This document shows, in pieces, positions 692 to 38,177 of a stretch of DNA of 64,000 bases. This DNA comes from Christensenella sp. UBA6880 (GTDB lineage: Bacteria; Bacillota; Clostridia; Christensenellales; CAG-917). The translations under genes and the position numbers were made by a program. Positions within the stretch are counted from its first letter, which is position 1; the number at the start of each line of letters is the position of its first letter. A model generated the notes under the pieces. That model worked only from the letters and a program-made list of their open reading frames with translations. It was not told where the DNA came from and did no database searches. The stretch spans positions 82,608 through 146,607 of the forward strand of contig DKCG01000026.1 in the NCBI GenBank assembly GCA_002449145.1. Direction: 5' to 3'.

Positions 692-1048
692 ATAATCATT
701 AATTTTTATATGAACACTTATAATTATTTGCTTTTTGACAATTCAACCTATATGAACATATGCGAAACTGCGAATATGCACATGTTCAAATCAAACGTAT
801 GCACGATTGCCGATATGAAAATATGCGTGGGTTTTAACTCTATTTTTTCGGGGCGGTGAACATCTAAAAAATCGCTCTGCACGAGCGATTTTTCTTAAAT
901 ATACGACGCATTTTTCATCTAAAATATATTGATATTTCGCCTAAAACATAGTGTTTTTTCGCTTAAAAAGCAGTGTTTTTTCTAAAAATTATGGATTTTT
1001 TTACTATATTATAAGCGGTGCAAAAAAGACTTTTCGATGCGAAATCGA

Positions 1049-1321
1049 TTATACGGATTGTTCGGCAAGGGCTTTTTCGTATGCTTCGAGAACGGCTTCT
1101 TTGAAAAGTTCGCGAGTTTGAGTGTTGATTGGGTGGACGATGTCCTTGTAGTTGCCGTCCGGCGTTTTTCTCGACGGCATTGCGATAAACGCGCCGCCTT
1201 CGCCATCAACTATCTTTATGTCGTGGACGGCAAAACAATCGTCTATGACGAGTGACGCAACCGCTTTCAATTTGCCTGCTTCTTGGTCTATTAATCTGAT
1301 TCTGACGTCTGAAATTTTCAT
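1049..1321 (-). CDS. spoVG: septation/sporulation regulator SpoVG
   Basis: The product MKISDVRIRLIDQEAGKLKAVASLVIDDCFAVHDIKIVDGEGGAFIAMPSRK... matches the SpoVG pattern. The ATG at 1321 is preceded by GAGGTG. The track start at 1408 is an upstream in-frame extension. Confidence 0.9.
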   Translation of the reverse strand: MKISDVRIRLIDQEAGKLKAVASLVIDDCFAVHDIKIVDGEGGAFIAMPSRKTPDGNYKDIVHPINTQTRELFKEAVLEAYEKALAEQSV

Positions 1322-1511
1322 ATGCACACCTCGGTGATTTTGCTTATTGTAGCACGAAAGTAGAAAAATAACAATACAAAATCTCAAATTAGTATCAAAA
1401 CAGCACAAAAATCACACAAATGTATGAATATGATTGCAATAAATATTCTGTTCAGATGGCTTTTCTTTCAAAGACGTATGCGCAATCGGGTGCGGTTTCA
1501 TATAATGAAAT

Positions 1512-2876
1512 ATGGATTTTTCGGCGGTAAAAAGAGGATATTTCGTGGGTATAGGCGGCGTTGGGGTAAACGCGCTTGCCAAATTCGCGGCGGACTATGG
1601 AATCGACGTTTGCGGAAGCGACGCAAAAATCAACGATTTGTGCAAAGAACTTGTAAAAAACGGTGCGAAAATAAGCAAAAATCCCGACTTTTCGTTGCTT
1701 GAAAAGTCTGATTTTTTGGTGTTTTCGTCGGCGATTCCGAAGGATAATCAAGAACTCGTTTTTGCAAAAAAAGCGGGTATACCTATGTACGAGCGGCACG
1801 AATTTCTTGCGGAAGTTTCGCATTTGTTCGGCAAGGTCGTGGCGATTGCGGGCACGCACGGCAAAACCACGACTACGGCAATGCTCACTCAAATTCTTTT
1901 TGAAAACGGTGTGAAATTTGCCTCGATGATAGGCGGCGAAAGCATAGATTTTTCAAATTACGTCAATAATACGGGTGCAGAAAGAATTGCGGATTTGAAA
2001 GATTGCATATTCGTTTGCGAGGCTTGCGAGTACAAGCGCAATTTGCTTGCGCTTTCGCCCGACGTTGCGGCGGTGCTGAACGCCGAGTGCGATCATCCCG
2101 ATTGCTACGACAGCCTAAAAAGCGTGAAGGAAACTTTTGCGGCGTTTCTTGAAAAATCGAAAATCAAAATCGTAGAGCAAAGCAACCTCGATTTGATAGG
2201 CGCGAGCGTAGGAAAAAAGCGCAACGGATTTTGCGTGTGCGTGCAAAACGGCACTCAAAAAAGGATGCACGCGTTCCCGAGCGGCGCATTGGTTTGCGAC
2301 GGCAAAAAAATGTCAACGCTCAAATTGCAGGACGGCGGACGGTACAACTTCGAGAACGCAACGTTTGCGCTTGCCGTTTCTTCGGCGTGCGGTTTGGATT
2401 TTGAAAAAAGCGTGTGCGCCTTGCAAAAATACAAAGGCGTAAAACGCAGATTCGAGCGTGCACGCGACGTCGGAAAAACGAAAGTGTATTTTGATTTTGC
2501 GCATCATCCGAGCGAAATTCAATCGGTCTTATCTCGCGCCGCAAAACTCGGCAAACTGCTCGTGGTTTTTCAGCCGCATACATACTCGCGCACGAAAGCG
2601 TATCTCGACGATTTCGCAAGAGTGCTCGGCGAAAAAAACAACGGCGTGAAAACGCTTGCGATTATGCCGACGTACGCCGCGCGCGAAGTGCCTTCAAACG
2701 GCGTCGAAAGCGACGTTTTGGCAACGACGATTTTCGACAAATATCGCAAAAAAGGCGTTTATCTTGTCAAAGACAAGCTATCAACGCTCGATTTTGTCAA
2801 ATCGCACGCAAAATATCACGACGTGATTTTGATGATAGGCGCGGGCGACGTCTACGATTTGAAAGACCTTTTCTAA
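1512..2876 (+). CDS. murC: UDP-N-acetylmuramate--L-alanine ligase
   Basis: The N-terminus GIGGVGVNALA and the Mur-ligase P-loop GTHGKTTTTAM are present, and the 454-aa length is typical of MurC. Confidence 0.9.
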   Translation: MDFSAVKRGYFVGIGGVGVNALAKFAADYGIDVCGSDAKINDLCKELVKNGAKISKNPDFSLLEKSDFLVFSSAIPKDNQELVFAKKAGIPMYERHEFLAEVSHLFGKVVAIAGTHGKTTTTAMLTQILFENGVKFASMIGGESIDFSNYVNNTGAERIADLKDCIFVCEACEYKRNLLALSPDVAAVLNAECDHPDCYDSLKSVKETFAAFLEKSKIKIVEQSNLDLIGASVGKKRNGFCVCVQNGTQKRMHAFPSGALVCDGKKMSTLKLQDGGRYNFENATFALAVSSACGLDFEKSVCALQKYKGVKRRFERARDVGKTKVYFDFAHHPSEIQSVLSRAAKLGKLLVVFQPHTYSRTKAYLDDFARVLGEKNNGVKTLAIMPTYAAREVPSNGVESDVLATTIFDKYRKKGVYLVKDKLSTLDFVKSHAKYHDVILMIGAGDVYDLKDLF

Positions 2877-2903
2877 TTTGCATATATGCAAATATGCGCA
2901 TAT
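2876..2903. repeat. two overlapping perfect palindromes, ATTTGCATATATGCAAAT and ATATGCGCATAT
   Basis: Read directly. They start at the murC stop codon (TAA 2874-2876), and a related ATTTGCA half-site pair follows the rnfB stop. Confidence 0.5.
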
Positions 2904-2960
2904 GAGAATATAGAAATACAAGAACACCGATATGCAAAATCGATAAAACGAGAATAGCAA

Positions 2961-2986
2961 AAAAGCGAGTTTGCCTCGCTCTTTTA
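2961..2986. terminator. bidirectional terminator between convergent murC and the DUF4363 gene
   Basis: Stem AGCGAG (2965-2970) pairs with CTCGCT (2975-2980) around loop TTGC, with an A-run upstream and a T-run downstream. Confidence 0.6.
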
Positions 2987-3004
2987 TATTCTCTGCACCT
3001 ATAA

Positions 3005-3382
3005 TCAGATTATGTCTTCCGCATTGAAATCGAGCAGACGTTTGATGTTGTCCGCCATTACGATAAGCGAGCGACACTTTGAAAGCGCGTTCTGATAGTC
3101 CTCACATTCGAGAGACCCTTGCGTTTCGGCAAGCGCAACCGAGAAGGAACGGACGTCGGGCGAGTAGGCAAAAAGTTCCATATACGTACGCTTCTTTTCC
3201 CACCATTCGAAAATATCGTTCGCTTTGTCGAGGCAATCCTCGCTTTGATTTATTATCGAGTTTTCAAGAGACGTGAGTTTTTCGTTCAAAGCGGAAAACG
3301 TCTTGTGAATGTAGAAATCTTCGAGTATGCCGCCCGTCACGATGATTATCAGAATCACGATTGCAAGCACGACTTTTTTCAT
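3005..3382 (-). CDS. DUF4363-like small membrane-anchored protein
   Basis: N-terminal TM MKKVVLAIVILIIIVTGG is followed by a helical domain. Its stop/start overlaps the upstream DUF421 gene by 4 nt, which is the usual DUF421-DUF4363 pairing in Firmicutes. Confidence 0.65.
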   Translation of the reverse strand: MKKVVLAIVILIIIVTGGILEDFYIHKTFSALNEKLTSLENSIINQSEDCLDKANDIFEWWEKKRTYMELFAYSPDVRSFSVALAETQGSLECEDYQNALSKCRSLIVMADNIKRLLDFNAEDII

Positions 3383-4161
3383 TGTTTCTCACCCCCGCGA
3401 TAGGATAAAAACGCATTTTTAACCTCTTGCGAACGGGCTTGTTCGTCGTCTTGCGCGTCGCTTTGTTGCGGCAAAGTCGAGGTGATATAGTCGCCTTTGT
3501 AGGGTTGAATGAACACATCTTGCCCCGCGACGAGAAGCACGAGCACGTCTTGTTGTTTGAGTTTTATGTCGTCGAGATATTTGAGCACGTCCTCTTTCAC
3601 GTCGCCGTCGAGCGTCGCAAGGTTTTCGGCAACGAACTCGCCTTCCATAATAACGGTTACGGGAATTTCGGCTTCGGGCGGTTTTATATCGACGTCGGAC
3701 GGCGCAAGCGGTCTGTTTTGCGACTTTTGAAGCACGCTCATATTGCCGTTGGTTTCCAAAATCGCATACTCGACTTCGGACGGATTGAAGCAACCCGAGC
3801 CGCGCAACGCTTCCATAACGTCGTCGATGTTGAGGTTGAGTTCTTCCATAACGTCGGGCAAAATGTTGCCTTTTTGTATGATAATGATGGGTTTGCCGTT
3901 GAGAAATTTGCGGAATTTTTTGCTTTTGGTTGCGAGTTTTGTGATGATGATATGCACCAAAAACAGCGAAAATACGGGGATAATTCCGTACAAAATCGGG
4001 ATTGACGAATCCGCCATAGGTATGCAAACAAGGTCGCTCGCAACGAGAGTTATCGCAAGTTCAAAGGGTTGCAATTCGCCGAGTTGGCGTTTGCCCATCA
4101 AACGCATTGCCACAAGCAATACGAAGTATAAAATTAAACACCTTATAAACAAATTGAGCAT
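3379..4161 (-). CDS. DUF421 (YetF-like) membrane protein
   Basis: MLNLFIRCLILYFVLLVAMRLMGKRQLGELQPFELAITLVASDL... is the characteristic DUF421 N-terminus. Confidence 0.8.
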   Translation of the reverse strand: MLNLFIRCLILYFVLLVAMRLMGKRQLGELQPFELAITLVASDLVCIPMADSSIPILYGIIPVFSLFLVHIIITKLATKSKKFRKFLNGKPIIIIQKGNILPDVMEELNLNIDDVMEALRGSGCFNPSEVEYAILETNGNMSVLQKSQNRPLAPSDVDIKPPEAEIPVTVIMEGEFVAENLATLDGDVKEDVLKYLDDIKLKQQDVLVLLVAGQDVFIQPYKGDYITSTLPQQSDAQDDEQARSQEVKNAFLSYRGGEKQ

Positions 4162-4238
4162 ATGCGTAGTTTGCTTATAAGGCGTTTTTTTATGCGATTA
4201 TCGGATTTTTTTGCGGAATCTCGCCGCATTAGCCTCGT

Positions 4239-5900
4239 CTATACTCGTACTTTGGCGGTTTCGTTGTCGCAACGTTTTGAACGAAAGGCAATTCGATTTT
4301 TCGTATGCTTTTCGTGCCGATTTTGCACCGTTTTTGTGCCGTTTTCCTTCGTCTTTTTGCGCATTTTTACGTGTTTTTTATGGCGTTTACTCGTCGATTT
4401 AATTGCGGTTTTGCTCGCCTTTTTAGGCGCAAGCATTTTTATGCAAGCGGTCACGTCAACCACGTTGAACGCGGATATGATGAGGAAGAAAAAGAAAAGT
4501 ATGTACACGCCCACGACGACGATTGCCGTGATATAGTCGGCGTATCTGCAAAGTAGTTTTGCGCCGAAAAGACCCGTTACGGCAAGCGGAATCGACAGCA
4601 AAACGAGGGGAAGATTTTTCTTGTGATTCGCGAACGAGCCGACTTCTTTTTTGAGGACTATGAGATTGATGATTGCTATGAGCAAAAAGCACAATCCCGT
4701 CGATAGTGCCATTGCGTAAATGCCGATGTATTTGGGCATAAAGAGAATACAAGGTATCATAGCGATTGCGCCTACGACCGTGCCGAGCAGCGTTACGCGC
4801 TCTTTTCCGAGCGAATTGAGCATAGGCGTGGTGGATTGAGCGGTGGCGATTGGAAATAGCATAAGCGAGCAGTAGGACACGAATTTGCCCGCCTCGCTGT
4901 CTTTGAACAGCAGTTGTCCGAGGCTTTGACCGAGCGGCAGATATATTGCGAAAAACAGACTTGCGATTATGACGGAAAACAGCAGAGAAGTGGACATCTT
5001 CGAGCGCACTGCGTCCATATTGCCCTTTGCGCGCAACTCTGCAACGTCGGGAACGAGCACGACGGACAGTGCGCCTATAAACGTCACGGGCGCCATAATA
5101 AGTGGCAACGCCATACCTGCGACTCTGCCGTATTGCGCCGTGGCTTCCGCAAGCGTAAGCCCTGCTTTTACGAGCATTTTGGGAAGAATGAGGGCGGTGA
5201 GCGACGCGCCGAGGGAAGTGATTATACGCGTTGCCGAAAGGGGAATGGTTTTCAACGTCAATTCCTTAAAACCGCTCGGTTTCGTCAGTCTTCCGCCCGT
5301 TGCGAAGAACAGCACGAGAAGTATAAGCACGCACGCAAGGTCGGAAATCGTCATTGCAAGAGCGATGTTTTGCGCGCCGTTAAGACGAGAAATCAAACCG
5401 CCGGTAAACGCAACGGAAAGCGCGATTTTTACAATCTCGTCGACAAGTTCGGTTGACGAAAACGCCAAAAACTTTTTTCTGCCCCAAAACCAACTGCGCA
5501 GCGACGCATAAAGCGTTGAGGTGAGGATTGTGGGCAACATAATGAAGAATATGGGCAAGCAATCGGGATTTGAAAACAGCGGTGAGATTTTCGTTCCCAA
5601 GCCGTAAAAGAGGGCGCAAATCGCCGCAGATATGCCGAGTCCAATAATCACGGAAGCGGTAAGAAGCGAGTTTTGCTTTTTGAGATTGCCGCTCGATTCC
5701 GCAATTTTTCTCGAAAGAACGGTGGGCGCGCCTGCGGTGATTGTAAAGAGCATAAGCAGAACGCTCAACGCAATTTGGTAGAGTCCGACGACTTCCGCAC
5801 CGAGCGCGCGGGACATCCACATTTTGAAGATAAACGAAACGAGCCTTGTCACGATTGAAAACCCCGTGACTATGCCGAAAGATTTTGCGGTGTTATTCAT
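4239..5900 (-). CDS. MOP-superfamily polysaccharide/lipid-II flippase (SpoVB/MurJ-like) with a long basic C-terminal tail
   Basis: Polytopic 553-aa protein. The N-terminus FGIVTGFSIVTRLVSFIFKMWMSRALGAEVVGLYQIA is typical of SpoVB/MurJ-type flippases. The last ~75 aa are Lys/Arg/His-rich. Confidence 0.75.
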   Translation of the reverse strand: MNNTAKSFGIVTGFSIVTRLVSFIFKMWMSRALGAEVVGLYQIALSVLLMLFTITAGAPTVLSRKIAESSGNLKKQNSLLTASVIIGLGISAAICALFYGLGTKISPLFSNPDCLPIFFIMLPTILTSTLYASLRSWFWGRKKFLAFSSTELVDEIVKIALSVAFTGGLISRLNGAQNIALAMTISDLACVLILLVLFFATGGRLTKPSGFKELTLKTIPLSATRIITSLGASLTALILPKMLVKAGLTLAEATAQYGRVAGMALPLIMAPVTFIGALSVVLVPDVAELRAKGNMDAVRSKMSTSLLFSVIIASLFFAIYLPLGQSLGQLLFKDSEAGKFVSYCSLMLFPIATAQSTTPMLNSLGKERVTLLGTVVGAIAMIPCILFMPKYIGIYAMALSTGLCFLLIAIINLIVLKKEVGSFANHKKNLPLVLLSIPLAVTGLFGAKLLCRYADYITAIVVVGVYILFFFFLIISAFNVVDVTACIKMLAPKKASKTAIKSTSKRHKKHVKMRKKTKENGTKTVQNRHEKHTKNRIAFRSKRCDNETAKVRV

Positions 5901-5924
5901 ATTTAAGAATATGAAAGGGAATAG

Positions 5925-5978
5925 TAATTAATAATTAATAATGAATAATTAATAATTGCGGGCGGGACACCCGCACCC
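5925..5978 (+). repeat. repeat module A, copy 1 (AT-rich all-frame-stop tract plus GC hairpin)
   Basis: The sequence AATTAATAATTAATAATGAATAATTAATAATTGCGGGCGGGACACCCGCACCC recurs at 34943-34997 and in shorter form at 53953-53983. Confidence 0.8.
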
Positions 5979-6002
5979 GAAACGAACACTCATTCGAAGC
6001 CT

Positions 6003-6530
6003 ACTTATACACGGAATGTGCAAATTCGCAGACGGAACACGAGCCGCAAGGCGGCGAGCCTATGAGCGCCGAACTTTCGTCACGCACAAGCCCTTTTGCT
6101 TCAACCGCAACAAGTTGTAGTTGTTCGCCTTTGTGCTTTGCGTTCCTCGTCCCACACGCCAAAAACTACGCTTTCATCATATTACTCAAACATAAGTTCG
6201 CTTGTTTTTGACGTGCGGGAACCCTTGTGCGTGTAGTACAAGCGACTGCGCCGTCTGTTGGCCACTGCCTGGCGCACAAAGCGCAGTGGCATAATGAGTG
6301 AAATGTCCCTATCTATGTGAGTGCCGTAAGGAACACAGTGACGGAATAGCGATTGTTACGAAGTCAATCGCGTCCTGCCCCCTCTTGCGAACGATGTAAA
6401 GTTTTGCAGAGAACTGGCGCAAGTTTGAGCAATAGGGGAAAGCCCGAAGGGAAGGGGTGACGTGTAATTTTAGAGTTCACGCCGTCAAACTTTTGTAGAG
6501 GAAGAACATTCCCCGTGAGGAAGGGGGAAG
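6003..6530 (+). repeat. repeat module T1, expanded copy (two nested insertions plus a tail ending in GTGAGGAAGGGGGAAG)
   Basis: Near-identical to 48915-49165 over the shared blocks, and interrupted at about 6078-6234 and 6326-6377. The tail at 6465-6530 ends with the T2-type purine terminus. Confidence 0.85.
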
Positions 6531-6619
6531 CTTTAATTTTATTTTTTTGCACTCGGCGCAAAGCAACAAAAAAACGCTCGCAAGTTTTGCTTGCGAGCGT
6601 TTCGATTTGTTTAATCAAA

Positions 6620-9600
6620 TCATTCCTTGTTCTCGTCGTATTTGTCGTGTTTTGCGTCGAGAGAAGGCGTTTCGATCGGGGATGCCGCTTTCTTTTCTTT
6701 CTTCTTTGCAATCGGCTTTCTAACTTTGCGTACGACGTAGACGATTACGACCACGATGATGAGCACTGCAAGGACGATTGTCGGAACCATCCACCAAAGC
6801 GCTTCGGTGTTGAAGGTGCTGTCAGGCGTTTCGTTGCCGCCGTTGTCGTCGTCGTCATCGCCCGTTCCTGCCGTTTCGTTGGAAACTTGGCGAGTGAGAA
6901 GGGTGCTGTCCGTTGCGGAATCGGTGACCGCTTTGTCGTATGCCGCTTCGTTGACTTCCTTGATGGTCACGTCGTCGAACATTGCGTAGCCGCTGGTGAT
7001 ACCCGTAACGGTGGTTTCGCCGTCAACGGTTTCGGATTCGAACTTGCCGAGCGAGAGTTTGACGGTGACGCTCGTCACGTCGTCGTCCATAGTCTTGACG
7101 ACAAAGGTGTATTTCGTCCAGTCTTGCGTGTCTGCCGCTTTGATTGCGGTGAAGGCGAAGGGCTTGTCGGATTCGTTTGCAGAGCCGAGATAGAGTTCGA
7201 CGTTTGCGCCGCTGATGTCGTCGTCGTTGGACATACCGTAGGTCTTGACCCAAACGCTGACTTCATAGAAGGAAGCCTCTTTGAGAGTGAACGTGGAACT
7301 CGTGTAAGTGTACGCGCTCTTTTCGGTGTTGTTGATGACGAGCATTTGCTTGCCGCTCTTTGCTTCGAGAACGCTGACGGGAATCCAGTTTGCTTTCTTC
7401 AAAGCAACGACCTTTTCTTCTTTGAGGGTTGCGATGATTTCTTCATCGGTCTTGCCTTCGAATCTTGCTTCTTTCTTTGCGTTTGCGATTTCTTCGTCGG
7501 TGGGTGTTGCTTCGTCGCTGTCGACGGTGTAGTCTGCGCCGAGAATACGTGCATAGTCAACGCCGTCAACGGTTTCTACTTCGTAGAAGTTGGGATCGGC
7601 ATAAACGATACCGCTCTTGGTTGCTTTTGAACTTGTCGTTCCGCTCACGCTGCCTGTCCAACCGTTGGGAGTTGCGAGTTCTTTTCTCGACTCGACTGCC
7701 GAAGAAAGAGAATCGAAACTGTCGGTGAGGAAGGAAAGTTTGTGGATGGTTTCGTTTGCGATTTCGGAAGTTTCCGCTTTGTCGTAGGTGTCTTCGTCGA
7801 TTGTGTTGTAGGTCACGTTGTCGAAGAATACGGTGCCGTTGGATTTTGCGTTTTCCGCTTGAAGTTCGCTCGTTTCGCCCTCAACCGTTCCGTAAGTGGT
7901 GTCTTGACCGAGCCAGAGATTGAGTTTTACGGAAACGCTGGATTGACCGGTGCGGATATAGAAGGTGTATTTTGCCCATTCGGATTCGGAAGCGGTCTTC
8001 GTTTCGACGAATGCGCTTGCGCCCGACTCGTTGGTAGAGTCAACGGAAGACTCGCCCGTGAGGTAGATAGAGAACGTTGTCTTGCCGACCGTTCTTGCAT
8101 AGACGGAAAGTGCATAGTAGCCGTTTGCCGAAAGCGTAACGCTGTTTGAAGAGAAGCCTGCCGCATAACCCGTCGTGCCGTCGTTTGAACCGATTGCGAG
8201 AAGTTGAGCCTTCTTGCCGGGGAAACTTTCAAGGTCGGTGTTTACGTCATAGAAGTTGCCGTAGAAGGAATCGAACACGGACGGCGCGATGTTGGGGAAT
8301 ACTGCCGTCGTTTGATCACTGTGAGAGAAGGACTTGTTGTCCGTCGTGTTCAAAGCGAGGATACCTGCAACGAGGTTGGATTCCGTCGTGTTGGGCTTCA
8401 AGGTCTTGTCGCTGAACGTCCAGTCGGAAGGCGTTGCGGCAACGTTTTGTTCGTTGAGGCTCTTGCCTTCTTCGAGGTTTTCGTCCTTAGTGTCGTAGTC
8501 GTCGAAAGCACCGTTGGTGAAGGTGTAACTCGAAGAAGCGGAAGCAAGGTCGACGTTCTTGACGTATGTGCCCGTGCTCGTGTTGTCGTATACGGTTTGA
8601 GAAATGCTTGCGCCGTTTATGTTTGCAACGAACATAGAGCCGCTCGTAAGAGTGCTCGACGCCCAGCGGTCGCCGCTGCCGAGAGCAAACTTCAAGGATA
8701 CGGTTACGTCTTCTTTCTCGCTGCCTTTGACGAGCATAGTGAGTTCGCACCAGTCGTTGAGGTAGGGATCGAAGCCGTCTTCGTCGGAATTGGTGTTGAT
8801 TTGAGAGAACGTCGTAAGAGCGGAATCGTCCTTTACGGTGTCGCCTTTCTTGACGAGATAGACGTATGCGCCGCTCGTTTCTTTGACGTCAACGGTCTTG
8901 ACCCAAACCGAGATACGATAAAATTTGTTCTTTTCGATCGTGAATGATTGAGTTTCGATTTCGTAACGGCTGTCGCCGGTTATTTTGATTTGGTATGCGT
9001 GTTTGTCAACCGTGTCGTAGGGAAGTTCGTCCTTGGAAAGTTCCACGACGCCTTCGCTCACGAGACCCTTTGCCAAAGGTGCGTCGGAATCGGTGAGGTC
9101 GTAGTTGGAAACCCAACCTTTAGGAATACCGTTGGTGTCCGCAATCACGTCGATGCCATCTTGCGAGGGCTTGCCGGTCGTGTTTGCGAGCATTCCGTCA
9201 AACGGCGCCATATTGGTGGTGGTGAGGTCGACTTTGAGACCTTCGTACGCGCTCATACCCGCTTCCGTCAAGTCGAGAGTTTGCTTGTCGTTCGCATCTT
9301 TGACGAGGGTAGAGGGAATGTCGCTTTCGGCAATCTCTTTGAGGTTGAGTTCGTCCATAAAGAGCCAGCCGTTAGAGAATGTGCCGTTTGCCTTGTACGT
9401 GGTTTGGGTTTTATCGGAGTTCCAGTTGGTGTATTCGACCGCCGTGTTGCTCGAAGTGCCTTCGGTGCCGAGCCATACGGTCATATTGTAACTGTAGTCT
9501 TTGAATTGGTTGCCTTGAATGTAGAAGGTGTAGGTCTTCCAGCCGTCGGTGGTGACGCCTTGGTCCGTGCCTGCCGCATAACTGTTGGAGTCGATCTTGG

Positions 9601-10999
9601 TGCTGCCGATAAACACGTTGTCGGACGGTGCTGCCGAGATGCCTTTGATGACGATGTCTTTTCCGTCGCTGCCCGAAAGGATAATGGACGCGCCCGCGCC
9701 GTGTACGCCGTAGGTGTAGACGTTGAGAGAAAGCGCGTAGAGTTTGTTCTTCTCGATGGTTATGCTGCGAGAGGACTTGACGCCTTGCGCGGTCATAAGT
9801 TGTTGAGAGAGCATAAACACGTTCGTGCCGACTGAACCGTCGATGAGTTTTTGAATACGGTTGTCATTGTCCTTGTTTGCGATTGCTTCGAGGCTACCTG
9901 CGGGAACGTAAGACGATTTCTTGTCGGGGTCTGCTTCGGACTTGGTGTAGTAAGTCGTGGAATACTTGTTGTAGTTGTCCGCAAACTTGCTCACGTCGAT
10001 GATTGCGTTGTAGCCCAAAGAGGACGGTGCGGAGTCGTTGCTGCCGCTGTTGCCCGTCACGAGCGACCAACCGTTGGGGGTTGCCGAAGACGAAAGAGAA
10101 GTCGTGCCGAAATCGAAGCGTCCGTTGGACACTTTGAGAGTTGCGGTCGCGGTGGTCTTTGCGTTTTCGTTGTTCGTCCTCTCGTTAAGGACTGCTTGCG
10201 CGTATTCGTCGCCGCTTTCGAGTTTGGTCAAAGTGAGGTTGTCGAACACTGCGTAACCCGTGGTGAGACCCGTCGTGTAAGAGGCGGAATACTTGCCGAG
10301 AGCGAGCATAACGTTGAGCGTGGACGAGGATGAGGGCGAGCCTTCGATAATCACGGAATAGGTGACCCATTTTCCTTGCGTGTCGATTGCGTCGAATTCC
10401 GCATAAGTGTTGGAACTGACGTAAATGCGTGCGCCGGGCGTGCCGTTTTCAGAGCCTTTGATGTCCTTTGTCAAAACGTCAACGGAAAGTTTATAATAGC
10501 CGCCTTTTGCAATAGTGAAAGAGGAAGACGTATAGCCGTAAGCGGTCGGACCGTTGACTTTTTTGCCGTCCTTTTCGGATTGCTCGGGCATATAAATCAT
10601 AAGCGCGTTTTTGATTTTGTCGTCATCGCCGTATCTGCCGCCCGCAACGAGAGCGTCGTAGAGGGAATTGTCGTCGTCGTTCCACGTGCTCTTGTTGGCG
10701 TCGTAGAGTGCTTTGTCGAGGCTGATTGCGCCTGCCGTGACGTCGTCCTTATAGTTGCCCGACGAATAGGTCTTGCCGCCCGTCCAGTTGGTGATAGTAC
10801 GGGGATAGGTCTTGACCGACGTGTCTACAACTTTGAAGTCGCCGTTGGAAATGAGAAGCCCTTTTGTGGCTTCGATTGTCGTTGTGGTGTCGTCCGTCGT
10901 GTTGTCGTCGTTCTTGTTGCAAGCGACGAACATTGCCGAAGTGAGCACGACGAGTGCGATCATCATTAGTGCTAATACTGCAAATTTCTTCTTGTTCAT
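6620..10999 (-). CDS. giant surface protein with lipoprotein-type signal, five CBM/jelly-roll-like modules and a C-terminal TM anchor
   Basis: Signal ...LTSAMFVAC-NKND. Five modules each end in a G(Y/W)xxFD(N/D/E)(L/V) type motif (TGYAVFDNLTL, NGWLFMDELNL, SGSMFVANING, NGTVFFDNVTY, SGYAMFDDVTI). C-terminal TM WWMVPTIVLAVLIIVVVIVYVV is followed by a Lys-rich tail. Confidence 0.7.
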   Translation of the reverse strand: MNKKKFAVLALMMIALVVLTSAMFVACNKNDDNTTDDTTTTIEATKGLLISNGDFKVVDTSVKTYPRTITNWTGGKTYSSGNYKDDVTAGAISLDKALYDANKSTWNDDDNSLYDALVAGGRYGDDDKIKNALMIYMPEQSEKDGKKVNGPTAYGYTSSSFTIAKGGYYKLSVDVLTKDIKGSENGTPGARIYVSSNTYAEFDAIDTQGKWVTYSVIIEGSPSSSSTLNVMLALGKYSASYTTGLTTGYAVFDNLTLTKLESGDEYAQAVLNERTNNENAKTTATATLKVSNGRFDFGTTSLSSSATPNGWSLVTGNSGSNDSAPSSLGYNAIIDVSKFADNYNKYSTTYYTKSEADPDKKSSYVPAGSLEAIANKDNDNRIQKLIDGSVGTNVFMLSQQLMTAQGVKSSRSITIEKNKLYALSLNVYTYGVHGAGASIILSGSDGKDIVIKGISAAPSDNVFIGSTKIDSNSYAAGTDQGVTTDGWKTYTFYIQGNQFKDYSYNMTVWLGTEGTSSNTAVEYTNWNSDKTQTTYKANGTFSNGWLFMDELNLKEIAESDIPSTLVKDANDKQTLDLTEAGMSAYEGLKVDLTTTNMAPFDGMLANTTGKPSQDGIDVIADTNGIPKGWVSNYDLTDSDAPLAKGLVSEGVVELSKDELPYDTVDKHAYQIKITGDSRYEIETQSFTIEKNKFYRISVWVKTVDVKETSGAYVYLVKKGDTVKDDSALTTFSQINTNSDEDGFDPYLNDWCELTMLVKGSEKEDVTVSLKFALGSGDRWASSTLTSGSMFVANINGASISQTVYDNTSTGTYVKNVDLASASSSYTFTNGAFDDYDTKDENLEEGKSLNEQNVAATPSDWTFSDKTLKPNTTESNLVAGILALNTTDNKSFSHSDQTTAVFPNIAPSVFDSFYGNFYDVNTDLESFPGKKAQLLAIGSNDGTTGYAAGFSSNSVTLSANGYYALSVYARTVGKTTFSIYLTGESSVDSTNESGASAFVETKTASESEWAKYTFYIRTGQSSVSVKLNLWLGQDTTYGTVEGETSELQAENAKSNGTVFFDNVTYNTIDEDTYDKAETSEIANETIHKLSFLTDSFDSLSSAVESRKELATPNGWTGSVSGTTSSKATKSGIVYADPNFYEVETVDGVDYARILGADYTVDSDEATPTDEEIANAKKEARFEGKTDEEIIATLKEEKVVALKKANWIPVSVLEAKSGKQMLVINNTEKSAYTYTSSTFTLKEASFYEVSVWVKTYGMSNDDDISGANVELYLGSANESDKPFAFTAIKAADTQDWTKYTFVVKTMDDDVTSVTVKLSLGKFESETVDGETTVTGITSGYAMFDDVTIKEVNEAAYDKAVTDSATDSTLLTRQVSNETAGTGDDDDDNGGNETPDSTFNTEALWWMVPTIVLAVLIIVVVIVYVVRKVRKPIAKKKEKKAASPIETPSLDAKHDKYDENKE

Positions 11000-19291: not shown

Positions 19292-19885
19292 ATGAACAAG
19301 TTTTCAAATAACGTGATTCTCGCCTCGTCCTCGCCTCGCCGCAAGGAAATTCTTGCGGATATGGGCGTAAAATACGAGGTTATTCCCGCAAATATAGACG
19401 AGAGCGAGATAAAATCCCGTTTTCCGTTCTTGCTCGTCAAGAAACTTGCAAAAGCAAAGGCGGAACATATCGCAAAAGAGCATAGAAGCGACACGGTCAT
19501 CGCGGCGGACACAATCGTCGTGCTTGACGGAAAAGTGTACGGCAAACCGCACGACAGAACGCACGCTTTCGATATGATAAAGCAACTCAACGGACGCACG
19601 CACACCGTGTATACGGGCGTTTGCGTGACGTGCGAGGGCAAAAAGGTCGTGGCTTGCGTCAAATCGCTCGTCACTTTCAAAACCCTCACCGACGATCGGA
19701 TTTATGCGTATATCGACGACTGCAAGCCGTTCGACAAAGCGGGTGCATACGGGATTCAGGACAAAAGAATCGTGGAAAAATACAGCGGCAGTTACTCTAA
19801 CATAATGGGGCTGCCCAAAGAAAAACTCGGCGACATTCTCGTTCGAGTCGGAGTTATCAATGGCAACAATAGAACTATCGATTGA
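19292..19885 (+). CDS. maf: Maf-like nucleoside triphosphate pyrophosphatase
   Basis: Contains VILASSSPRRKEIL and AGAYGIQD motifs. The internal ATG at 19292 is taken as the start. Confidence 0.9.
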   Translation: MNKFSNNVILASSSPRRKEILADMGVKYEVIPANIDESEIKSRFPFLLVKKLAKAKAEHIAKEHRSDTVIAADTIVVLDGKVYGKPHDRTHAFDMIKQLNGRTHTVYTGVCVTCEGKKVVACVKSLVTFKTLTDDRIYAYIDDCKPFDKAGAYGIQDKRIVEKYSGSYSNIMGLPKEKLGDILVRVGVINGNNRTID

Positions 19886-20858
19886 CCTCGGAAGCAAGTT
19901 TATCACCATCTATCAAAAGGGCATAGGTCTCGTTTTGCGCGAGCCTGCAATCGCCATTGCGACCAAATCGCGCAACCGTCTCGAAATCCGCGACGCGGGG
20001 TACAGAGCGGAAAGCGTTATGACGGGTTCGCTCGGCGGCGCAAGAGTCATCGCGCCCATCAAGGAAGGCATAATCGTAGACGAAGAAATGGCGACTATGC
20101 TTCTTCATTACTTCCTCAAAAAGATTATCCCCGAAGGCATTTTTATGCCTAGAATCAAAGCCATCGTGTCCATTTGCGAATCCTCGTCGGGTTCGGACAG
20201 ACGTGCGGTGGAAAAGTGCTGCATAAAGGCGGGCATAAAGGAAGTCACGCTCGTGGAATCGGGTTTGAGCCTTCTTGCCTACACCAACAGCATAGGCGGT
20301 CTTTTCGTTGACATCGGCGGCGGCAAAACCGAAATATCCGCAGTCACCAATCACGGCATTGCGACGGGTTGCTCGGTCAATATCGCAGGCGACGCGTTCA
20401 ACAACGCAATCATAGATAGCCTTTATATGAATTACGGCGTAAAGGTGGGCGAATTTACAATCGAGAATCTCAAAAAATCCGCGCTTTCTTTCTACGTCAA
20501 CGACGAGGGCAGTTACGCCGTCAGCGGCGGCAGTGCGGACGGTTCGCCTCGTTCGCTCTACGTCACCGCAGAGCAAATGCGCGACGCCGTGATTCCGCTT
20601 GTGGACGACATCATCGAAGTCATAATGTCCGTCCTCAACCAAACGCCGCCCGAACTTTCCGCAGAGATACTTCGAAAAGGCATTTTCGTATCCGGCGGCT
20701 CGCTTCACATTCCGGGACTTATCGACTATCTCGAACAAGCGCTTGAACTTCCCGTCACGCCGCTCAAAGACATCGAGAACGCGATTGCAATCGGCGGCGC
20801 GAGATTCTTCGACGAAAAGAATCTGCTGTCTGATATGTTGGGGGTCAAATTGTATTAA
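19860..20858 (+). CDS. mreB: MreB/Mbl-like actin-fold rod-shape protein (divergent)
   Basis: The pattern IDLGSKFITIYQKGIGLVLREP...IAPIKEGIIVDEEMATMLLHYF parallels MreB, and it follows maf as in many Firmicutes. Confidence 0.7.
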   Translation: MATIELSIDLGSKFITIYQKGIGLVLREPAIAIATKSRNRLEIRDAGYRAESVMTGSLGGARVIAPIKEGIIVDEEMATMLLHYFLKKIIPEGIFMPRIKAIVSICESSSGSDRRAVEKCCIKAGIKEVTLVESGLSLLAYTNSIGGLFVDIGGGKTEISAVTNHGIATGCSVNIAGDAFNNAIIDSLYMNYGVKVGEFTIENLKKSALSFYVNDEGSYAVSGGSADGSPRSLYVTAEQMRDAVIPLVDDIIEVIMSVLNQTPPELSAEILRKGIFVSGGSLHIPGLIDYLEQALELPVTPLKDIENAIAIGGARFFDEKNLLSDMLGVKLY

Positions 20859-20863
20859 AGCGC

Positions 20864-21068
20864 GCTATTTGGCGAATAACTTTGGACGCGATTGACGCAA
20901 GCGTAACAATCGCTATTCCGTCACTTCGTTCCTTACAACGCCCTTTTGTTCACCCGTCACGTACGATTTAGTACGTTGGGCGGGTTCGCAAAAGGGCGTT
21001 TCCTTGTTCTTCATCTCAATAGTGCGCTTTAATGCAATTTGATGTCACTCATTCAAGGCGTACTTATC
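20864..21068 (+). repeat. composite repeat locus: 17-mer, rc52 block, H-type long hairpin, TTCTTCATCTCAATA box and x-block
   Basis: 20864-20880 equals 48888-48904. 20884-20936 is the reverse complement of 6326-6375. Arms 20937-20948 and 20989-21000 form a 12-bp stem. 21044-21068 resembles 5988-6010. Confidence 0.8.
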
Positions 21069-24108: not shown

Positions 24109-26817
24109 ATGAAAAGATTTAGATTGTTGGTAGTGTTATCACTATGCATATTGATTTGTTGCATATTGTGTGCTTGCAGTCCTAGCGATTCCGATTATGA
24201 TGACAGTAGTGTACAAAAATATAGTGTAACTTGGAAAAACTACGACGGCACGGTTCTGGAAAAAGATAGTGAAGTGGTATATGGAACAGTACCCGAATAT
24301 AACGGCATAACACCGACCAAACCGTCGACGGAACGCTATTCATATGCCTTCAACGGTTGGACACCGACAATCGTTCCTGTTACGGAAGATGTTGTTTATA
24401 CAGCGCAATTTGCCGAAACTACGAACACATATAGCGTAATCTGGGAAAATTATGACGGCACAATTTTAGAAAAAGATAATGAAGTGGCGTACGGAGAAGT
24501 GCCCGAATATAACGGCATAACACCGACCAAGCCATCAACAGGGCGGTATTCATACTCGTTCAACGGTTGGACACCGACAATTGTTCCCGTTACAAAAAAT
24601 GTTGTTTATACGGCACAATTCAACGAATCGACAAATACATATAGTGTAATCTGGAAGAATTATGACGGTACAATTTTAGAAAAAGATAACGAAGTGGCGT
24701 ACGGGGAAGTGCCCGAATATAACGGCATAACACCGACCAAACCGTCGACGGAACGTTATTCTTATGCGTTCAACGGTTGGACTCCGACAATTGTTCCTGT
24801 TACGGAAGATGTCGTTTATACGGCGCAGTTCGCAGAAACGATAAATACATATAGCGTAATTTGGAAGAATTATGACGGCACGATATTAGAAACTGATAAT
24901 GAAGTAGAATATGGGCTAATGCCCGAATATAACGGTGCGATGCCGATTAAGGGCGATGACGATATTTTCCGATATTCATTTATTGGCTGGGATAAAGAGA
25001 TTGCTCCTGTTGTGTCTGATATAATATATATTGCTCAGTTTTCCAGTGCATATAAAGAAGATTTTATATTTGAAACGGTTGGCAACAAATGTTTTTTAAA
25101 GAAATATGTTGGGGTAAACGAAAGCGTCGTTATTCCAAGTACATATCAAAACCATCCGGTTGTTTCGATTTTGTCAAATGCATTTGACAAAAAAGCGTGT
25201 GTAAAATCATTATACGTTCCTACCAGCGTTATTGAAATTCAGAAAAATGCTTTGAGCGGTTGTACAAATATAGAGCGGTTGATTCTTCCTTTTGTAGGCG
25301 ACGGCGCAGATATAGGATTTATCGGATATGTATTTGGCGCTGCAAATTATGAAGAAAACGCACAATGCGTTCCTTATTCGCTGTCATCAATAAGAATATA
25401 CAATGCGAATATTATTGCAAGTAACGCATTTTACGGTTGCAAATATTTAGAATATGTGGAAATTTCGGACGATATTACAAGTATCGGTGATGGTTGTTTG
25501 GCAGGTTGCGCGTCTCTTTCTAAAATGCGCTTGCCATTTGTCGGCGAATCATATAATAGCAAGAATTCATTTGGATATATATTTGGAACAAATAATTATT
25601 CTAATTCTCAAATCGTTTCACAAAACGGACAAATATTTTATATTCCGAATAGCCTTTCAGAAGTTGAAATTACAGGTGGATGTATATTGACAGGAGCGTT
25701 TGAAAATTGTGCTATGATTCAAAAAATAAGCATTGAACAAGGTGTTTCTATAATCGAGGAAGAATCCTTTGCAAATTGCAATTCGCTAAGAGAGATTTAT
25801 GTCGATTCGGCTGTGGAAATAAAAGCGTATGCATTTGCCAAATTGTGCAACCTTGAAAAAATAAAAGTGCCTATTCAGGATTATTCGTATAGCGATTCAG
25901 AATATTTGTGGACGTTATATCACATAGGTAGAATGTTTAATAAGGAAGAATATGGCGGATGCGATGCTATTACACAATCAAGTAAAGGAAAAGGAATAGG
26001 CAGTAATGCAGGCGTAGGTTCCGGCGGCGGAGGAACTTATTATATACCGACATCGTTAAAAGAAATTGTTGTAGATTGTAAAAACGATATTTTGGGTTAT
26101 GGGGCGTTAAGCGGTATTGCAAACGTTGAATTTGTTATTAACAATTGCACGGGCATCGCAGAGTATTCGTTGTCTCGAACGAGCATCAAAACATTTATCA
26201 TTCCGAAAGGATTGACAGAAATTCCAGAAGGCGCATTCAGTGAATGCGAGTTGTTGGAAAGTATAGTCATTCCTTATGGAGTGACTACAATACAAAATAA
26301 CGCTTTTAGGGGATGTATTTCATTGAAAACAATTGTTGTCCCTAAAACGTTATCAGGAATAGGTGAGCTAAGTTTTAGTGGTTGTAAATCGTTAGAAAAT
26401 ATAGATTTTATCAGAAACTGCGCAGAAGAATTTGTTATCGGAAGAAATGCATTTATTGAATGTACTGGGTTAAAAAAGTTGATTATTCCGAGCAATGTTT
26501 GTTCGATATATTATGGTGCTTTTGGCAACTGTTCGGAAATAAGCTCTGTTACTTTTGAGGACGGTTCAACTTGCGCATATATCGGCGGAGCTGCTTTTCA
26601 CGATTGTACAAAACTTGAATATGTAGTTATTCCTTCAAGTGCATTGACATTGGGAGAAAGTGTGTTTTCTGGTGACACATCATTAATTATATATGCAGAA
26701 TTTAATGAAAAACCATCAAGATGGGGTAATTATTGGAATAAGGATAACAATGCGGTTTATTGGTTATCAGAATGGAAATACGACGAATCGGGTTTTCCTT
26801 GTCCCAATAATGATTAG
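24109..26817 (+). CDS. surface lipoprotein with four 70-aa Listeria-Bacteroides-type B repeats and BspA-type leucine-rich repeats
   Basis: Lipobox LCAC-S. Repeats have the form YSVxWxNYDGTxLE...NGWTP...VYTAQF. LRR_5-like units such as IPxGVTTIQNNAFRGCISLKTIVVP follow. Confidence 0.8.
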   Translation: MKRFRLLVVLSLCILICCILCACSPSDSDYDDSSVQKYSVTWKNYDGTVLEKDSEVVYGTVPEYNGITPTKPSTERYSYAFNGWTPTIVPVTEDVVYTAQFAETTNTYSVIWENYDGTILEKDNEVAYGEVPEYNGITPTKPSTGRYSYSFNGWTPTIVPVTKNVVYTAQFNESTNTYSVIWKNYDGTILEKDNEVAYGEVPEYNGITPTKPSTERYSYAFNGWTPTIVPVTEDVVYTAQFAETINTYSVIWKNYDGTILETDNEVEYGLMPEYNGAMPIKGDDDIFRYSFIGWDKEIAPVVSDIIYIAQFSSAYKEDFIFETVGNKCFLKKYVGVNESVVIPSTYQNHPVVSILSNAFDKKACVKSLYVPTSVIEIQKNALSGCTNIERLILPFVGDGADIGFIGYVFGAANYEENAQCVPYSLSSIRIYNANIIASNAFYGCKYLEYVEISDDITSIGDGCLAGCASLSKMRLPFVGESYNSKNSFGYIFGTNNYSNSQIVSQNGQIFYIPNSLSEVEITGGCILTGAFENCAMIQKISIEQGVSIIEEESFANCNSLREIYVDSAVEIKAYAFAKLCNLEKIKVPIQDYSYSDSEYLWTLYHIGRMFNKEEYGGCDAITQSSKGKGIGSNAGVGSGGGGTYYIPTSLKEIVVDCKNDILGYGALSGIANVEFVINNCTGIAEYSLSRTSIKTFIIPKGLTEIPEGAFSECELLESIVIPYGVTTIQNNAFRGCISLKTIVVPKTLSGIGELSFSGCKSLENIDFIRNCAEEFVIGRNAFIECTGLKKLIIPSNVCSIYYGAFGNCSEISSVTFEDGSTCAYIGGAAFHDCTKLEYVVIPSSALTLGESVFSGDTSLIIYAEFNEKPSRWGNYWNKDNNAVYWLSEWKYDESGFPCPNND
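24220..25059 (+). repeat. in-frame 210-bp tandem repeat x4 inside the lipoprotein gene
   Basis: Units lie at 24220, 24430, 24640 and 24850. Units 1 and 3 are nearly identical at the protein level, and unit 4 has diverged. Confidence 0.85.
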
Positions 26818-27975: not shown

Positions 27976-28028
27976 GGCAACGGCAACACGCAAGCGTGCG
28001 TATTGCCGAGAGCCTTGCTAGGTTTCTG

Positions 28029-28264
28029 CACTACTAACCGCGCAAGCCCTCTTTACTCTCAAAATAAGACGGACAAAAACTCAAACCGCAATTCCGTGCG
28101 AGTGCTTGCTTGGTGGGTGCGCACTTCGTGCGCAAGCGGTAAATTTGAACGGCGGTTGGGCGCGACGCGTCAAACAATACATTCGGTGAATGTGTTGTAG
28201 CCAAAGCGAACGAGGCGGATTGCCTCGCAAACGCCGAAGTCCAAACACGTGAGGAAAGGGGAAG
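28029..28264 (+). repeat. repeat module T2, copy 1
   Basis: Aligns with 37726-37958 and 54056-54292. The 3' ~125 nt are nearly identical, and it ends GTGAGGAAAGGGGAAG. Confidence 0.85.
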
Positions 28265-28302
28265 CTTTTCTTAAAAAATATACAAACTACAACGATACGA
28301 AA

Positions 28303-33300: not shown

Positions 33301-33426
33301 GCAATTATATTTGCCAAATAAGCAAAATCCGCAAAAAAAAAGCGGCGTTTTGCAAAAAAAAGAAGGAAAAGCCTTTTGGCGGTGCGGCTTAGAGTTTGAA
33401 ATTCGCTCTTTGCGCACAAATATTTG

Positions 33427-34965: not shown

Positions 34966-34997
34966 TTAATAATTGCGGGTGGGGTAAACCCCACACC
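34943..34997 (+). repeat. repeat module A, copy 2
   Basis: The sequence is AATTAATAATTAATAATGAATAATTAATAATTGCGGGTGGGGTAAACCCCACACC. It supplies the C-terminal ...LIINNE and the stop of the upstream CDS. Confidence 0.8.
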
Positions 34998-37677: not shown

Positions 37678-37958
37678 AAACGAAAACTTTTTGGCGATTG
37701 ATAACAACCGCACTTGTTTTCGCAAGCACTAACCGCGCAGAGAATTTGAGCTATCAGTTCAAGCACGGATAAGAACTCAAACCGCAATTTCGCCAAATTA
37801 TCTGCTTGGTGCAGCGCACTTCGTGCGAAAGCGGTAAATTTGAACGGCGGTAGGGCGCGACGCGTTAAACAACACATCCAGTGAATGTGTTGTAGCCAAA
37901 GCGAACGAGGCGGATTGCCTTGCAAACGCCGAAGTCCAAACACGTGAGGAAGGGGGAA
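37569..37958 (+). repeat. composite repeat: T1 5' fragment, hairpin block (GTCATTCCGAGCGAAGCGTGGGAATC) and T2 copy 2 (37726-37958)
   Basis: 37570-37600 matches the T1 5' block, and 37726-37958 aligns with the other T2 copies. Confidence 0.85.
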
Positions 37959-37971
37959 ATGTGTTAAGTTC

Positions 37972-38030: not shown

Positions 38031-38177
38031 ATGAAAAGAATCACAACTTTGAAAACACGCGATCTCAACGAGAGCAAAAAGAACGGCGGCTGTGGCGAAT
38101 GCCAAACCTCTTGCCAATCTGCTTGCAAAACTTCCTGCGGCGTTGCAAACCAAAAGTGCGAAAAGGCTGCAAAGTAA
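38031..38177 (+). CDS. SCIFF (six-cysteine) ranthipeptide precursor, 48 aa
   Basis: MKRITTLKTRDLNESKKNGGCGECQTSCQSACKTSCGVANQKCEKAAK. It is not in the ORF track because it is shorter than 60 aa. It has a strong SD and lies directly upstream of the maturase. Confidence 0.9.
   Translation: MKRITTLKTRDLNESKKNGGCGECQTSCQSACKTSCGVANQKCEKAAK

Follow-up and report, generated by a model that had tools for sequence, protein, structure and literature searches.

How one repeat comes to lie inside another is the question raised by the T1 element at 6003–6541 of a 64,000-nt window from Christensenella sp. UBA6880 (contig DKCG01000026.1, positions 82,608 to 146,607). The window is this whole stretch of DNA, and coordinates refer to it. 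The T1 copy is interrupted by two blocks. A first-pass annotation had read the blocks as nested insertions of small hairpin modules, mobile or recombining like BOX elements or miniature inverted-repeat transposable elements (MITEs), and had offered variable peripheral stems of an RNA as the alternative. The explanation towards which we lean is that the blocks are cassettes shuffled by recombination among paralogous structured repeats, in the manner of bacterial interspersed mosaic elements (BIME), ERIC sequences (the repetitive intergenic consensus of enterobacteria) and BOX elements, and are neither MITEs nor stems grown in place.

Anatomy of the interrupted T1 copy

The region 5941–6620 was compared with the window by blastn. 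Positions 6015–6076 matched 48915–48976 at 95% identity, and 6235–6481 matched 48984–49182 at 72% with one internal gap. Comparison with the compact T1 copy at 48915–49182 by blastn and alignment confirmed that both interruptions were real, with block 1 at 6077–6234 and block 2 at about 6327–6378. The blocks were extra sequence, as had been proposed, but they were not clean insertions, and each had swapped out a few host nucleotides (gacggac and actt, respectively). The element did not end at 6464 as first annotated; it ran on to 6541 with a post module and a second 3′ end, and the direct repeat D1 (6443–6472 and 6512–6541) corresponded to these tandem 3′ ends. The ~45-nt post module (tTAGAGTtcacgccg..ACTCTTGTAGAGGAAGAACA; 6466–6510) often came after the GGGGGAA 3′ end at many loci, and was sometimes followed by a second 3′-end motif, giving tandem 3′ ends there too. 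No inverted repeats were found at the T1 element ends, where …AGACGGAAC and …GAGGAAGGGGGAA are not inverted repeats. The copy at 6003 was antisense to both adjacent genes.

Block 1 was bounded by an outer stem, the 10-bp inverted repeat CACGCACAAG (6081–6090) and CTTGTGCGTG (6224–6233), which a repeat search confirmed to be perfect. It also held an inner 17-nt inverted repeat (6150–6166 and 6204–6220, 88%) and an AAG-UUCG-CUU hairpin near 6193–6202. The likeness to the H module, a second repeat family of the window, was borne out: the box GCGTTCCTCGTCCC of block 1 agreed at 11 of 14 positions with the H-box form GCGTTCTTCATCTC at window ~59990, and the pyrimidine boxes and the first 21 nt of the block 1 hairpin resembled an H unit. 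Block 2 was the reverse complement of 20884–20936, as the first-pass annotation had stated (6326–6375, 86.8% over 53 nt, E = 6e-12). Its own hairpin, GCGATTG (6350–6356) with CAATCGC (6365–6371), was present and was closed by AGGA/TCCT.

Fold of the T1 core

The T1 structure was derived from subfamily alignments and tested by pair counts. In 60 copies, the front domain was 92.7% paired, compared with 28–49% when the partners were slid. The domain was closed by the long-range helix P1 (CGGAACACG with CUAUGYGAG..CYG), which enclosed the GNRA hairpin P2 and then P3, P4, and P6. P4 showed UA, UG, and CG. The middle hairpin occurred in at least four unrelated sequence versions, each with a perfect 6–8-bp stem at the same place. 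For the tail domain, four nested helices with 19 pairs were derived by hand, and these were 95.7% paired in 34 distinct copies, compared with 38–62% when slid. Four tail pairs changed in a compensatory way: two alternated between CG and UA, one between GC and AU by way of GU, and one among CG, UA, and GC by way of UG. The tail also had a conserved U·G pair. The T1 core contained at least nine helices, including long-range ones, within ~240 nt.

On the plus strand, the non-Watson-Crick cells of the core helices were G·U in about 125 cases and A·C in about 6 (one doubtful pair excluded). The plus strand folded 10.8 kcal/mol better than the minus strand in 19 standard copies. The G·U excess and the better plus-strand folding suggested that the T1 fold is read on the strand sense to the upstream gene. 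Single-sequence minimum free energy (MFE) z-scores of whole T1 copies were unimpressive (−0.9 to −2.6), and RNAalifold on a mixed-subtype alignment recovered the fold in part only. On the evidence of the aligned copies, the T1 core is a covarying multi-helix fold with strand-specific G·U pairs. In this structure, the core folds on the plus strand with P1 enclosing P2–P6, followed by a tail domain of four nested helices.

Both blocks fell at the periphery of this fold. Block 1 prolonged P4: the base CTT(G)/CAAG was kept, and the outer stem of the block stacked on P4. Block 2 occupied the linker that joins the front domain to the tail, and its first nucleotide came directly after G6326 of the last P1 pair. 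The core helices were undisturbed by either block.

Presence and absence of the blocks

The comparison sequences were metagenome bins or contigs throughout. All four presence/absence combinations of the blocks were found among T1 copies, which confirmed that the modules are separable. Neither block was present in the window copy at 48915 (W48915) and at loci L002, L007, L086, and L091; block 1 alone was found at L098 and L023; block 2 alone was found at L008, L095, L090, and L061; and both were found in the window copy at 6003 and at L024. Block-bearing copies recurred in independent assemblies, among them CP091723.1 (L090, block 2) and CAKQGN010000003.1 (L024, both blocks). CP091723.1 is a relative with a complete long-read chromosome of 1.65 Mb. 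This recurrence indicated that the block architecture is no assembly artefact.

No fetched locus was identical to the window. The closest relative was CAKQLT, a Hadza gut metagenome-assembled genome (MAG) with 95–96% identity. Other relatives (labelled CAG:238, UMGS1042/1043, and "Christensenella sp.") were 82–92% identical, the UMGS1043 contigs at ~82%. A check for polymorphism at the locus had been suggested, and the ortholog in CAKQLT was found to carry neither block. The CAKQLT locus was split on two contigs with ~93 nt of overlap in the head: L066 corresponded to 1048–6076 of the window at 94.7%, and L007 to 6379–10460 at 96%. The compact P4 junction was seen in both contigs and the compact linker in L007, and the middle, tail, and post segments of L007 were 97%, 99%, and 96% identical to those of the window copy. 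These identities, together with the compact junctions, showed L007 to be a true ortholog without either block. Origin of the compact form by simple deletion between ACAAGC direct repeats (near 6086 and 6239) was ruled out, since the predicted junction differed from the actual one.

The same locus in two ~90% relatives carried a T1 head with a T2 body (L016) and a third architecture (L076). In L033, which was 95% identical, the T2 copy of window 28013–28265 was missing, and a block-1-bearing T1 stood where the window has none. The differences among these close relatives show that the spacers holding the repeats turn over quickly.

Dependence of the blocks on their hosts

The metagenome scan for block 1 returned 48 matches, of which four (L122, L135, L138, and L148) were set aside as an unrelated repeat. 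In all of the remaining 44 copies and in nine genome copies (53/53), block 1 lay within a T1-family element, and neither its site nor its orientation varied. As a free-standing unit, which the first-pass annotation would have expected of an insertion, it was found in 0/53 cases. The four matches set aside, from metagenome contigs of unrelated samples, share the exact 24-mer CAAGTTCGCTTGTTTTTGTCGTGC with block 1 within a different repeat (gctagcaggtccgaga...tagctagatgg). This 24-mer may have arisen by convergence on a UUCG-type hairpin, or it may mark a distant relative.

The outer stem of block 1 occurred in compensatory variants (CACGCACAAG/CTTGTGCGTG, CGCACACAAG/CTTGTGTGCG, and CACACACAAG/CTTGTGTGTG) and was fully paired in 37/37 distinct copies. 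The "terminal" repeat therefore behaves as a helix and not as a conserved transposase site. A shorter block 1 (~95 nt) with the same outer stem was found in L003. The same block 1 variant (95–96% identical) occurred in hosts whose adjacent middle segments were only 81–84% identical or of another type, and block 1 was combined with differing heads, middle hairpins, and tails.

Block 2 lay in T1 or H in 10/10 copies, six in T1 context and four in H context. Its loop was ttacgaagt in T1 and ttacgcwtgcgt, in the opposite orientation, in H, so the suspected reuse regardless of orientation was verified. The T1- and H-context copies formed two separate groups by loop sequence, which suggested a rare move between the families followed by spread within each. 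Alignment and repeat search found no target-site duplications or flanking direct repeats at either block. The junction nucleotides were block-specific, identical at every locus, and traveled with the block. The surroundings of T elements, searched in 107 loci of up to 8 kb but not in whole genomes, yielded no recurrent transposase-like open reading frame (ORF).

Reversed polarity of block 1

The helices of block 1 showed a polarity opposite to that of the core. On the plus strand, A·C exceeded G·U (86 vs 6); one A·C was fixed in 37/37 distinct copies, and another pair varied among GC, AC, and AT. The minus strand folded better in 37/37 copies (−60.6 vs −45.1 kcal/mol). Block 1 was C/T-rich, whereas the T1 core was G/A-rich. 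Mutational bias cannot account for both polarities, because host and cassette share their loci. The reversed polarity indicated that the block 1 structure evolved on the other strand, and block 1 may be either a foreign inverted cassette or a part that is read from the minus strand. Block-1-bearing copies were antisense to both neighbors in 7/18 cases, compared with 5/42, with orthologous loci kept in the counts; this excess is a lead only.

The T1/T2 superfamily

The 28-nt T1 head core was scanned against 185,579 species-representative genomes. At least 107 loci were found in ~15 related MAGs of the clade, and the window contained three copies of the core where none was expected. Many matches were at contig ends, as expected of repeats that break assemblies. 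A second head variant, GTGAGCGTTCGCAAGGCGAACGCC in place of GACGGAACACGAGCCGCAAGGCGGCGAG, has a longer stem and the same GCAA loop. It was seen in L108, L154, and most other metagenome block-1 copies, and it had escaped the 28-mer scan, so the family is larger than the loci found. Among the copies having both head and 3′ end, 19/35 measured 230–246 nt.

The window contains T1 forms at 6003, 37566 (head only), 43311, and 48915, and T2 forms at 28013, 37700, and 54039. The 3′ end ACACGTGAGGAAGGGGGAA was common to all T1/T2 window copies (five observed vs 0.06 expected). In some T1 copies, the T2 "back half", a block of ~85 nt, was flanked within the T1 tail by CGGCGGTWGGG and AAACACGTGAGG, and T1 and T2 therefore belong to one superfamily. 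Its parts combined freely: heads, middle hairpins of four types, tails of three or more types, both blocks, the T2 back half, and the post module. The description of a mosaic of hairpin modules thus suits the whole system well. T1/T2 is a large unannotated superfamily, typically of ~240 nt, and each genome of a clade of uncultured gut Clostridia (Christensenella-like MAGs) carries dozens of copies.

Placement was examined with 109 head-anchored copies. The nearest upstream gene was co-oriented with the T element in 69/87 cases, and the downstream gene was on the opposite strand in 40/63 cases. The flank combinations were +− in 20, ++ in 16, −− in 5, and −+ in 1. T elements therefore follow genes and shun promoter-only spacers. 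We infer that T elements are transcribed and probably act within the transcript of the upstream gene, as 3′ untranslated region (3′ UTR) or inter-cistronic RNA, as repetitive extragenic palindromic (REP) sequences, BIME, and ERIC do. The T1 head at 37566–37677 lies inside the 3′ end of an Orn/Lys/Arg decarboxylase-like ORF (36070–37677), and this ORF appears to have lost its original 3′ end and stop to the repeat.

Several known types of element were considered and ruled out. Rfam 15 gave no match for the whole window at the gathering score, and three T copies searched in E-value mode (E < 10) returned only terminator look-alikes and noise, which excluded group I/II introns, T-box, HEARO/omega RNAs, and large noncoding RNAs. 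T1 had no blastn match in plasmid and phage collections, and a plasmid or phage origin was rejected. A riboswitch or cis-regulatory leader was ruled out, because T elements trail co-oriented genes rather than precede them and the genes downstream are unrelated (SCIFF peptide, radical SAM enzyme, holA, GIY-YIG protein, and uvrB). A TnpB/IscB-type guide-RNA scaffold or other protein-linked element was ruled out, since no neighboring protein family recurred; the only protein clusters near T loci were ABC/UvrA paralogues and spurious ORFs inside the repeat. A literature search for earlier descriptions of these repeats returned general reviews only.

The H-module family

H is a long irregular hairpin of ~125 nt with conserved inner strands (CGAATAACTGCGTCA ... 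TTCCTTGTTCTTCAT) and with an apical hairpin and closing stem that vary with compensation. The loci L001–L155 contained 64 complete copies, and the window sites were 20860–21030, about 59900–60000, and 48888–48905. The upstream gene was co-oriented in 50/55 cases, and about 30 of 38 first H units started 0–2 nt from the stop codon of this gene. That codon is paired within the closing stem, and a T-run comes after the stem. H units were often tandem and often upstream of a T1 element, and block 2 was an optional insert in H as well. The accessory module cgaaacgaacactcattcgaagcctacttat of T1 also closes the H-module region at 21046–21067.

The identical 18-mer GCTATTTGGCGAATAACT was found at 48888–48905 and 20864–20881 and matches the start of the H module. 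At 48888, uvrA takes its final codons and TAA stop from this 18-mer, which places a repeat module over the end of a housekeeping ORF. A strand test of the H hairpin by single-sequence MFE was nearly symmetric and uninformative. No Rfam match was found for the H family. H looks like an elaborate stop-codon-anchored terminator or 3′-UTR element.

Origin of the blocks

In the recombination model, the blocks would be optional stem-loop cassettes at two permissive sites, the P4 extension (block 1) and the post-P1 linker (block 2). Homologous recombination or gene conversion would carry the cassettes, along with the junction nucleotides that belong to them, from one paralogous copy to another, and the conserved head, middle, and tail segments would serve as homology. 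Such exchange would yield combinatorial mosaics and same-locus differences between close relatives. The fixed sites, the shared junctions, the lack of target duplications, the presence of one block variant in diverged hosts, and the combination of block 1 with various heads, hairpins, and tails argue against transposition. The same observations argue against growth in place and fit recombination or gene conversion.

Nested transposition would make blocks 1 and 2 small non-autonomous mobile elements with their own inverted repeats. It would account for discrete blocks that are polymorphic among close relatives, for block 2 in two unrelated hosts and both orientations, for a block 1 whose polarity opposes the host as that of foreign DNA would, and for the perfect inverted repeat at the block 1 ends. 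This is nevertheless quite unlikely. Neither block has target-site duplications, the blocks replace 4–7 host nucleotides, block 1 never occurs outside T1 or block 2 outside T1 or H modules, the terminal repeat of block 1 covaries where a transposase site would stay conserved, and no transposase-like ORF recurred at the loci examined. The MITE-like or mobile part of the earlier reading is accordingly not supported. The alternative that the blocks are RNA expansion segments, peripheral stems grown or shrunk gradually in each copy lineage without DNA exchange, agrees with their positions at a hairpin tip and an inter-domain linker of a covariation-supported fold. It also agrees with the variable stem length and sequence at other family sites and with the shorter block 1 of L003. 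What the first-pass annotation said of peripheral stems is therefore right as to position. Growth purely in place is unlikely, because block 1 polarity opposes the host and the same block variant sits in hosts far more diverged than the block itself; the abrupt switch between presence and absence at an orthologous locus of ~95% identity and the inverted sharing of block 2 with H modules also speak against it.

A further alternative is that the hairpins act in single-stranded DNA, for example as sites recognized by a REP-associated tyrosine transposase (RAYT) or an IS200/IS605-like enzyme, or as signals for replication or recombination; on this view, replication direction and not transcription would underlie the orientation bias. 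GC skew climbs along the whole window, which makes the plus strand the leading strand, and every T and H copy in the window lies on it. The antisense position of the 6003 copy, the more frequent antisense position of block-1-bearing copies, and the better minus-strand folding of block 1 are also in keeping with a DNA-level element. Against it, no Y1-transposase-like gene was found in the 155 loci (whole genomes were not searched), and the size and complexity of the elements far exceed those of REP or IS200 end hairpins. Moreover, H modules adjoin the stop codons of co-oriented genes to within 0–2 nt, which suggests a position linked to transcript or translation. We consider this alternative very unlikely.

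Several points weigh against the reading of recombining cassettes in an RNA fold, towards which we still lean. What speaks for the RNA level is covariation, wobble asymmetry, and placement, and many of the compensatory changes are common to subfamilies, leaving few independent events. The A·C pairs of block 1 are not predicted by a plain T1 RNA stem model, and the minus strand, as RNA or single-stranded DNA, could matter. Recombination is the proposed mechanism, and a site-specific insertion mechanism that supplies its own junction bases may have acted instead. The difference at 6003 may be a gain here or a loss in the relative, as the bodies at this locus in the outgroups are unrelated. The related sequences are metagenome bins, so chimeric assembly could account for some mosaics.

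Genome context

The features are listed in Table 1. The spacers between genes in the window were unusually long (250–720 nt) and packed with repeats. About nine of the elements were present in the 64 kb and took up much of the intergenic space. The window belongs to the chromosome of a bacterium of the class Clostridia and has genes for UvrB, UvrA, DNA polymerase III delta, a MurJ-like flippase, and a SCIFF six-cysteine peptide together with the radical-SAM maturase of this peptide. The SCIFF peptide gene (48 aa) and the radical-SAM/SPASM maturase gene lie at 38031–39682, directly 3′ of the mosaic T element. From its sequence alone, we take the gene at 21147 to be MinD.

Table 1. Position and strand of the repeat elements, their parts, and flanking features in the window.
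Feature	Position	Strand	Remark
Neighboring module: AT-rich AATTAATAAT repeats, then GC hairpin (gcgggcgggacacccgc)	5926–5976	+	Terminator-like if read on minus strand
Optional 5′ accessory modules cgaaacgaacactcattcgaagcctacttat and acacggaatgtgcaaattc	5977–6025	+	In most, not all, T1 copies
T1 head: P1 5′ strand 6033–6041; GNRA hairpin P2 GCC-GCAA-GGC 6043–6052; P3 6053–6056/6067–6070; P4 5′ side 6074–6077	6026–6076	+
Block 1, 158 nt, in place of 7-nt P4 loop segment of compact copies	6077–6234	+	By blastn and multiple alignment
T1 middle: P4 3′ side CAAG 6239–6242; variable hairpin 6261–6290; P6; P1 3′ strand about 6314–6326	6235–6326	+
Block 2, 52 nt, in place of actt of compact copies	about 6327–6378	+	Directly 3′ of last P1 pair
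T1 tail, variant type (ccccctcttgcg ... aataggggaaagcccgaagggaaggggtgacgtg), ending in first 3′-end motif	6379–6465	+
Post module (tTAGAGTtcacgccgtcaaACTtTtgtagaggaagaaca) and second family 3′ end CCCCGTGAGGAAGGGGGAAgctttaatttt	6466–6541	+	Post module recurs after many T copies
Bidirectional intrinsic terminator of minus-strand gene 6620–10999	6572–6602	both	Outside repeat; marks unique flank conserved in orthologous loci
H module with block 2 reversed (20884–20936)	20860–21030	+	Begins at stop codon of gene 19860–20858
T2-type copy	28013–28265	+	Missing at same locus in 95%-identical relative L033
Mosaic: T1 head, T2 body, shared 3′ end	37566–37960	+	Head within last ~37 codons of ORF 36070–37677
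Standard ~240-nt T1	43311–43570	+	Tail type commonest in family
Compact T1, reference copy	48915–49182	+	Starts directly after uvrA stop codon
T2-type copy	54039–54295	+

An AT-rich module of AATTAATAAT(T/G)AATAAT repeats, with stops in several frames and a short GC hairpin, was found at 5926–5976, 34943–34990, and 53953–53985. At 34943 it holds the stop of ORF 33424–34965, and in L033 it fills the spacer where the window has a T2 element. At E ≤ 0.001, Pfam gave no match for the minus-strand ORF at 6620–10999 (1459 aa), which was 90–96% conserved in L007, L016, and L076. Tandem repeats of 210-nt period (~3.4 copies, 78–84% identity) were found at 24219–24935 within a 902-aa ORF (24109–26817), in a low-GC stretch (37–43% GC, about 22–28 kb). 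This ORF may encode a repeat-containing surface protein on a foreign island.

Relation to known repeats and significance

REP/BIME and ERIC sequences are placed as T elements are, after genes and away from promoter-only spacers; REP/BIME sequences lie at gene 3′ ends or between convergent genes, fold into stem-loops, are linked to recombination, and affect mRNA fate (PMC3184786). ERIC sequences are repeats of transcribed regions that can alter mRNA decay, and neisserial NIME form mosaic arrays implicated in recombination (PMC3184786).

T1 shares with the BIME/REP sequences of enterobacteria and pseudomonads a high extragenic copy number, 3′-end placement, stem-loops, and a mosaic build from few motifs; extragenic 3′-end placement and motif mosaics were both found in T1, and a short-palindrome unit was not. 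A REP unit is a GC-rich palindrome of 20–40 nt, whereas T1 is a multi-helix fold of 240–550 nt with long-range closing helices. The two have no sequence relationship, the T1 lineage is clostridial, and no RAYT was seen in the T1 loci examined. ERIC (IRU) sequences are likewise repeats of gene 3′ ends, and Wilson & Sharp (2006) reportedly described longer ERIC variants with extra blocks of ~70 bp at fixed internal sites. These blocks are the closest precedent for the repeat inside a repeat of T1. ERIC itself is a single 127-bp imperfect palindrome with terminal inverted repeats and TA flanks, and T1 showed neither this palindrome nor terminal inverted repeats, TA flanks, or a target duplication.

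Pneumococcal BOX elements have a modular boxA-boxB(n)-boxC construction, and recombination has been linked to their mosaic arrays as well. T1 resembles BOX and NIME in its modular mosaic build and differs in sequence and size; to our knowledge, no covarying long-range fold has been described for either. MITEs such as Correia, RUP, Nezha, and others resemble T1 in size range, intergenic site, and possible co-transcription, but their hallmarks (terminal inverted repeats, target-site duplications, and dispersed solo copies) were absent from T1 and both blocks. Large structured bacterial RNAs (such as RNase P RNA or the OLE/ROOL/GOLLD type) resemble T1 in that their conserved core carries GNRA and UUCG loops, their helices covary, and some of their peripheral hairpins are optional. 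They are single- or low-copy, whereas T1 has dozens of diverged paralogues per ~1.65-Mb genome and no Rfam 15 model. T1/T2 looks like an undescribed and much more elaborate counterpart of the proteobacterial, neisserial, and pneumococcal mosaic repeats, in uncultured small-genome Clostridia of the human gut.

A bolder proposal, which we regard as doubtful, is that T1/T2 and H form a new class of functional 3′-UTR RNA modules, a genome-wide layer of post-transcriptional or translation-termination control and not selfish DNA. If so, a gut Clostridia lineage with a genome of ~1.65 Mb would carry large covarying folds in dozens to hundreds of paralogues; H modules would be tied to stop codons, and the families would exchange cassettes in sense as well as antisense orientation. 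T1 RNAs with blocks might then pair with H RNAs or be read from the other strand.

The elements break short-read assemblies and differ by strain at one locus, and they matter for binning, strain typing, and MAG annotation. A ~240-nt covarying fold with swappable cassettes, together with H modules at stop codons, offers a concrete system in which an RNA-level function of bacterial repeats can be tested. An imported module can be recognized simply, from sequence alone, by a wobble polarity opposite to that of its host.

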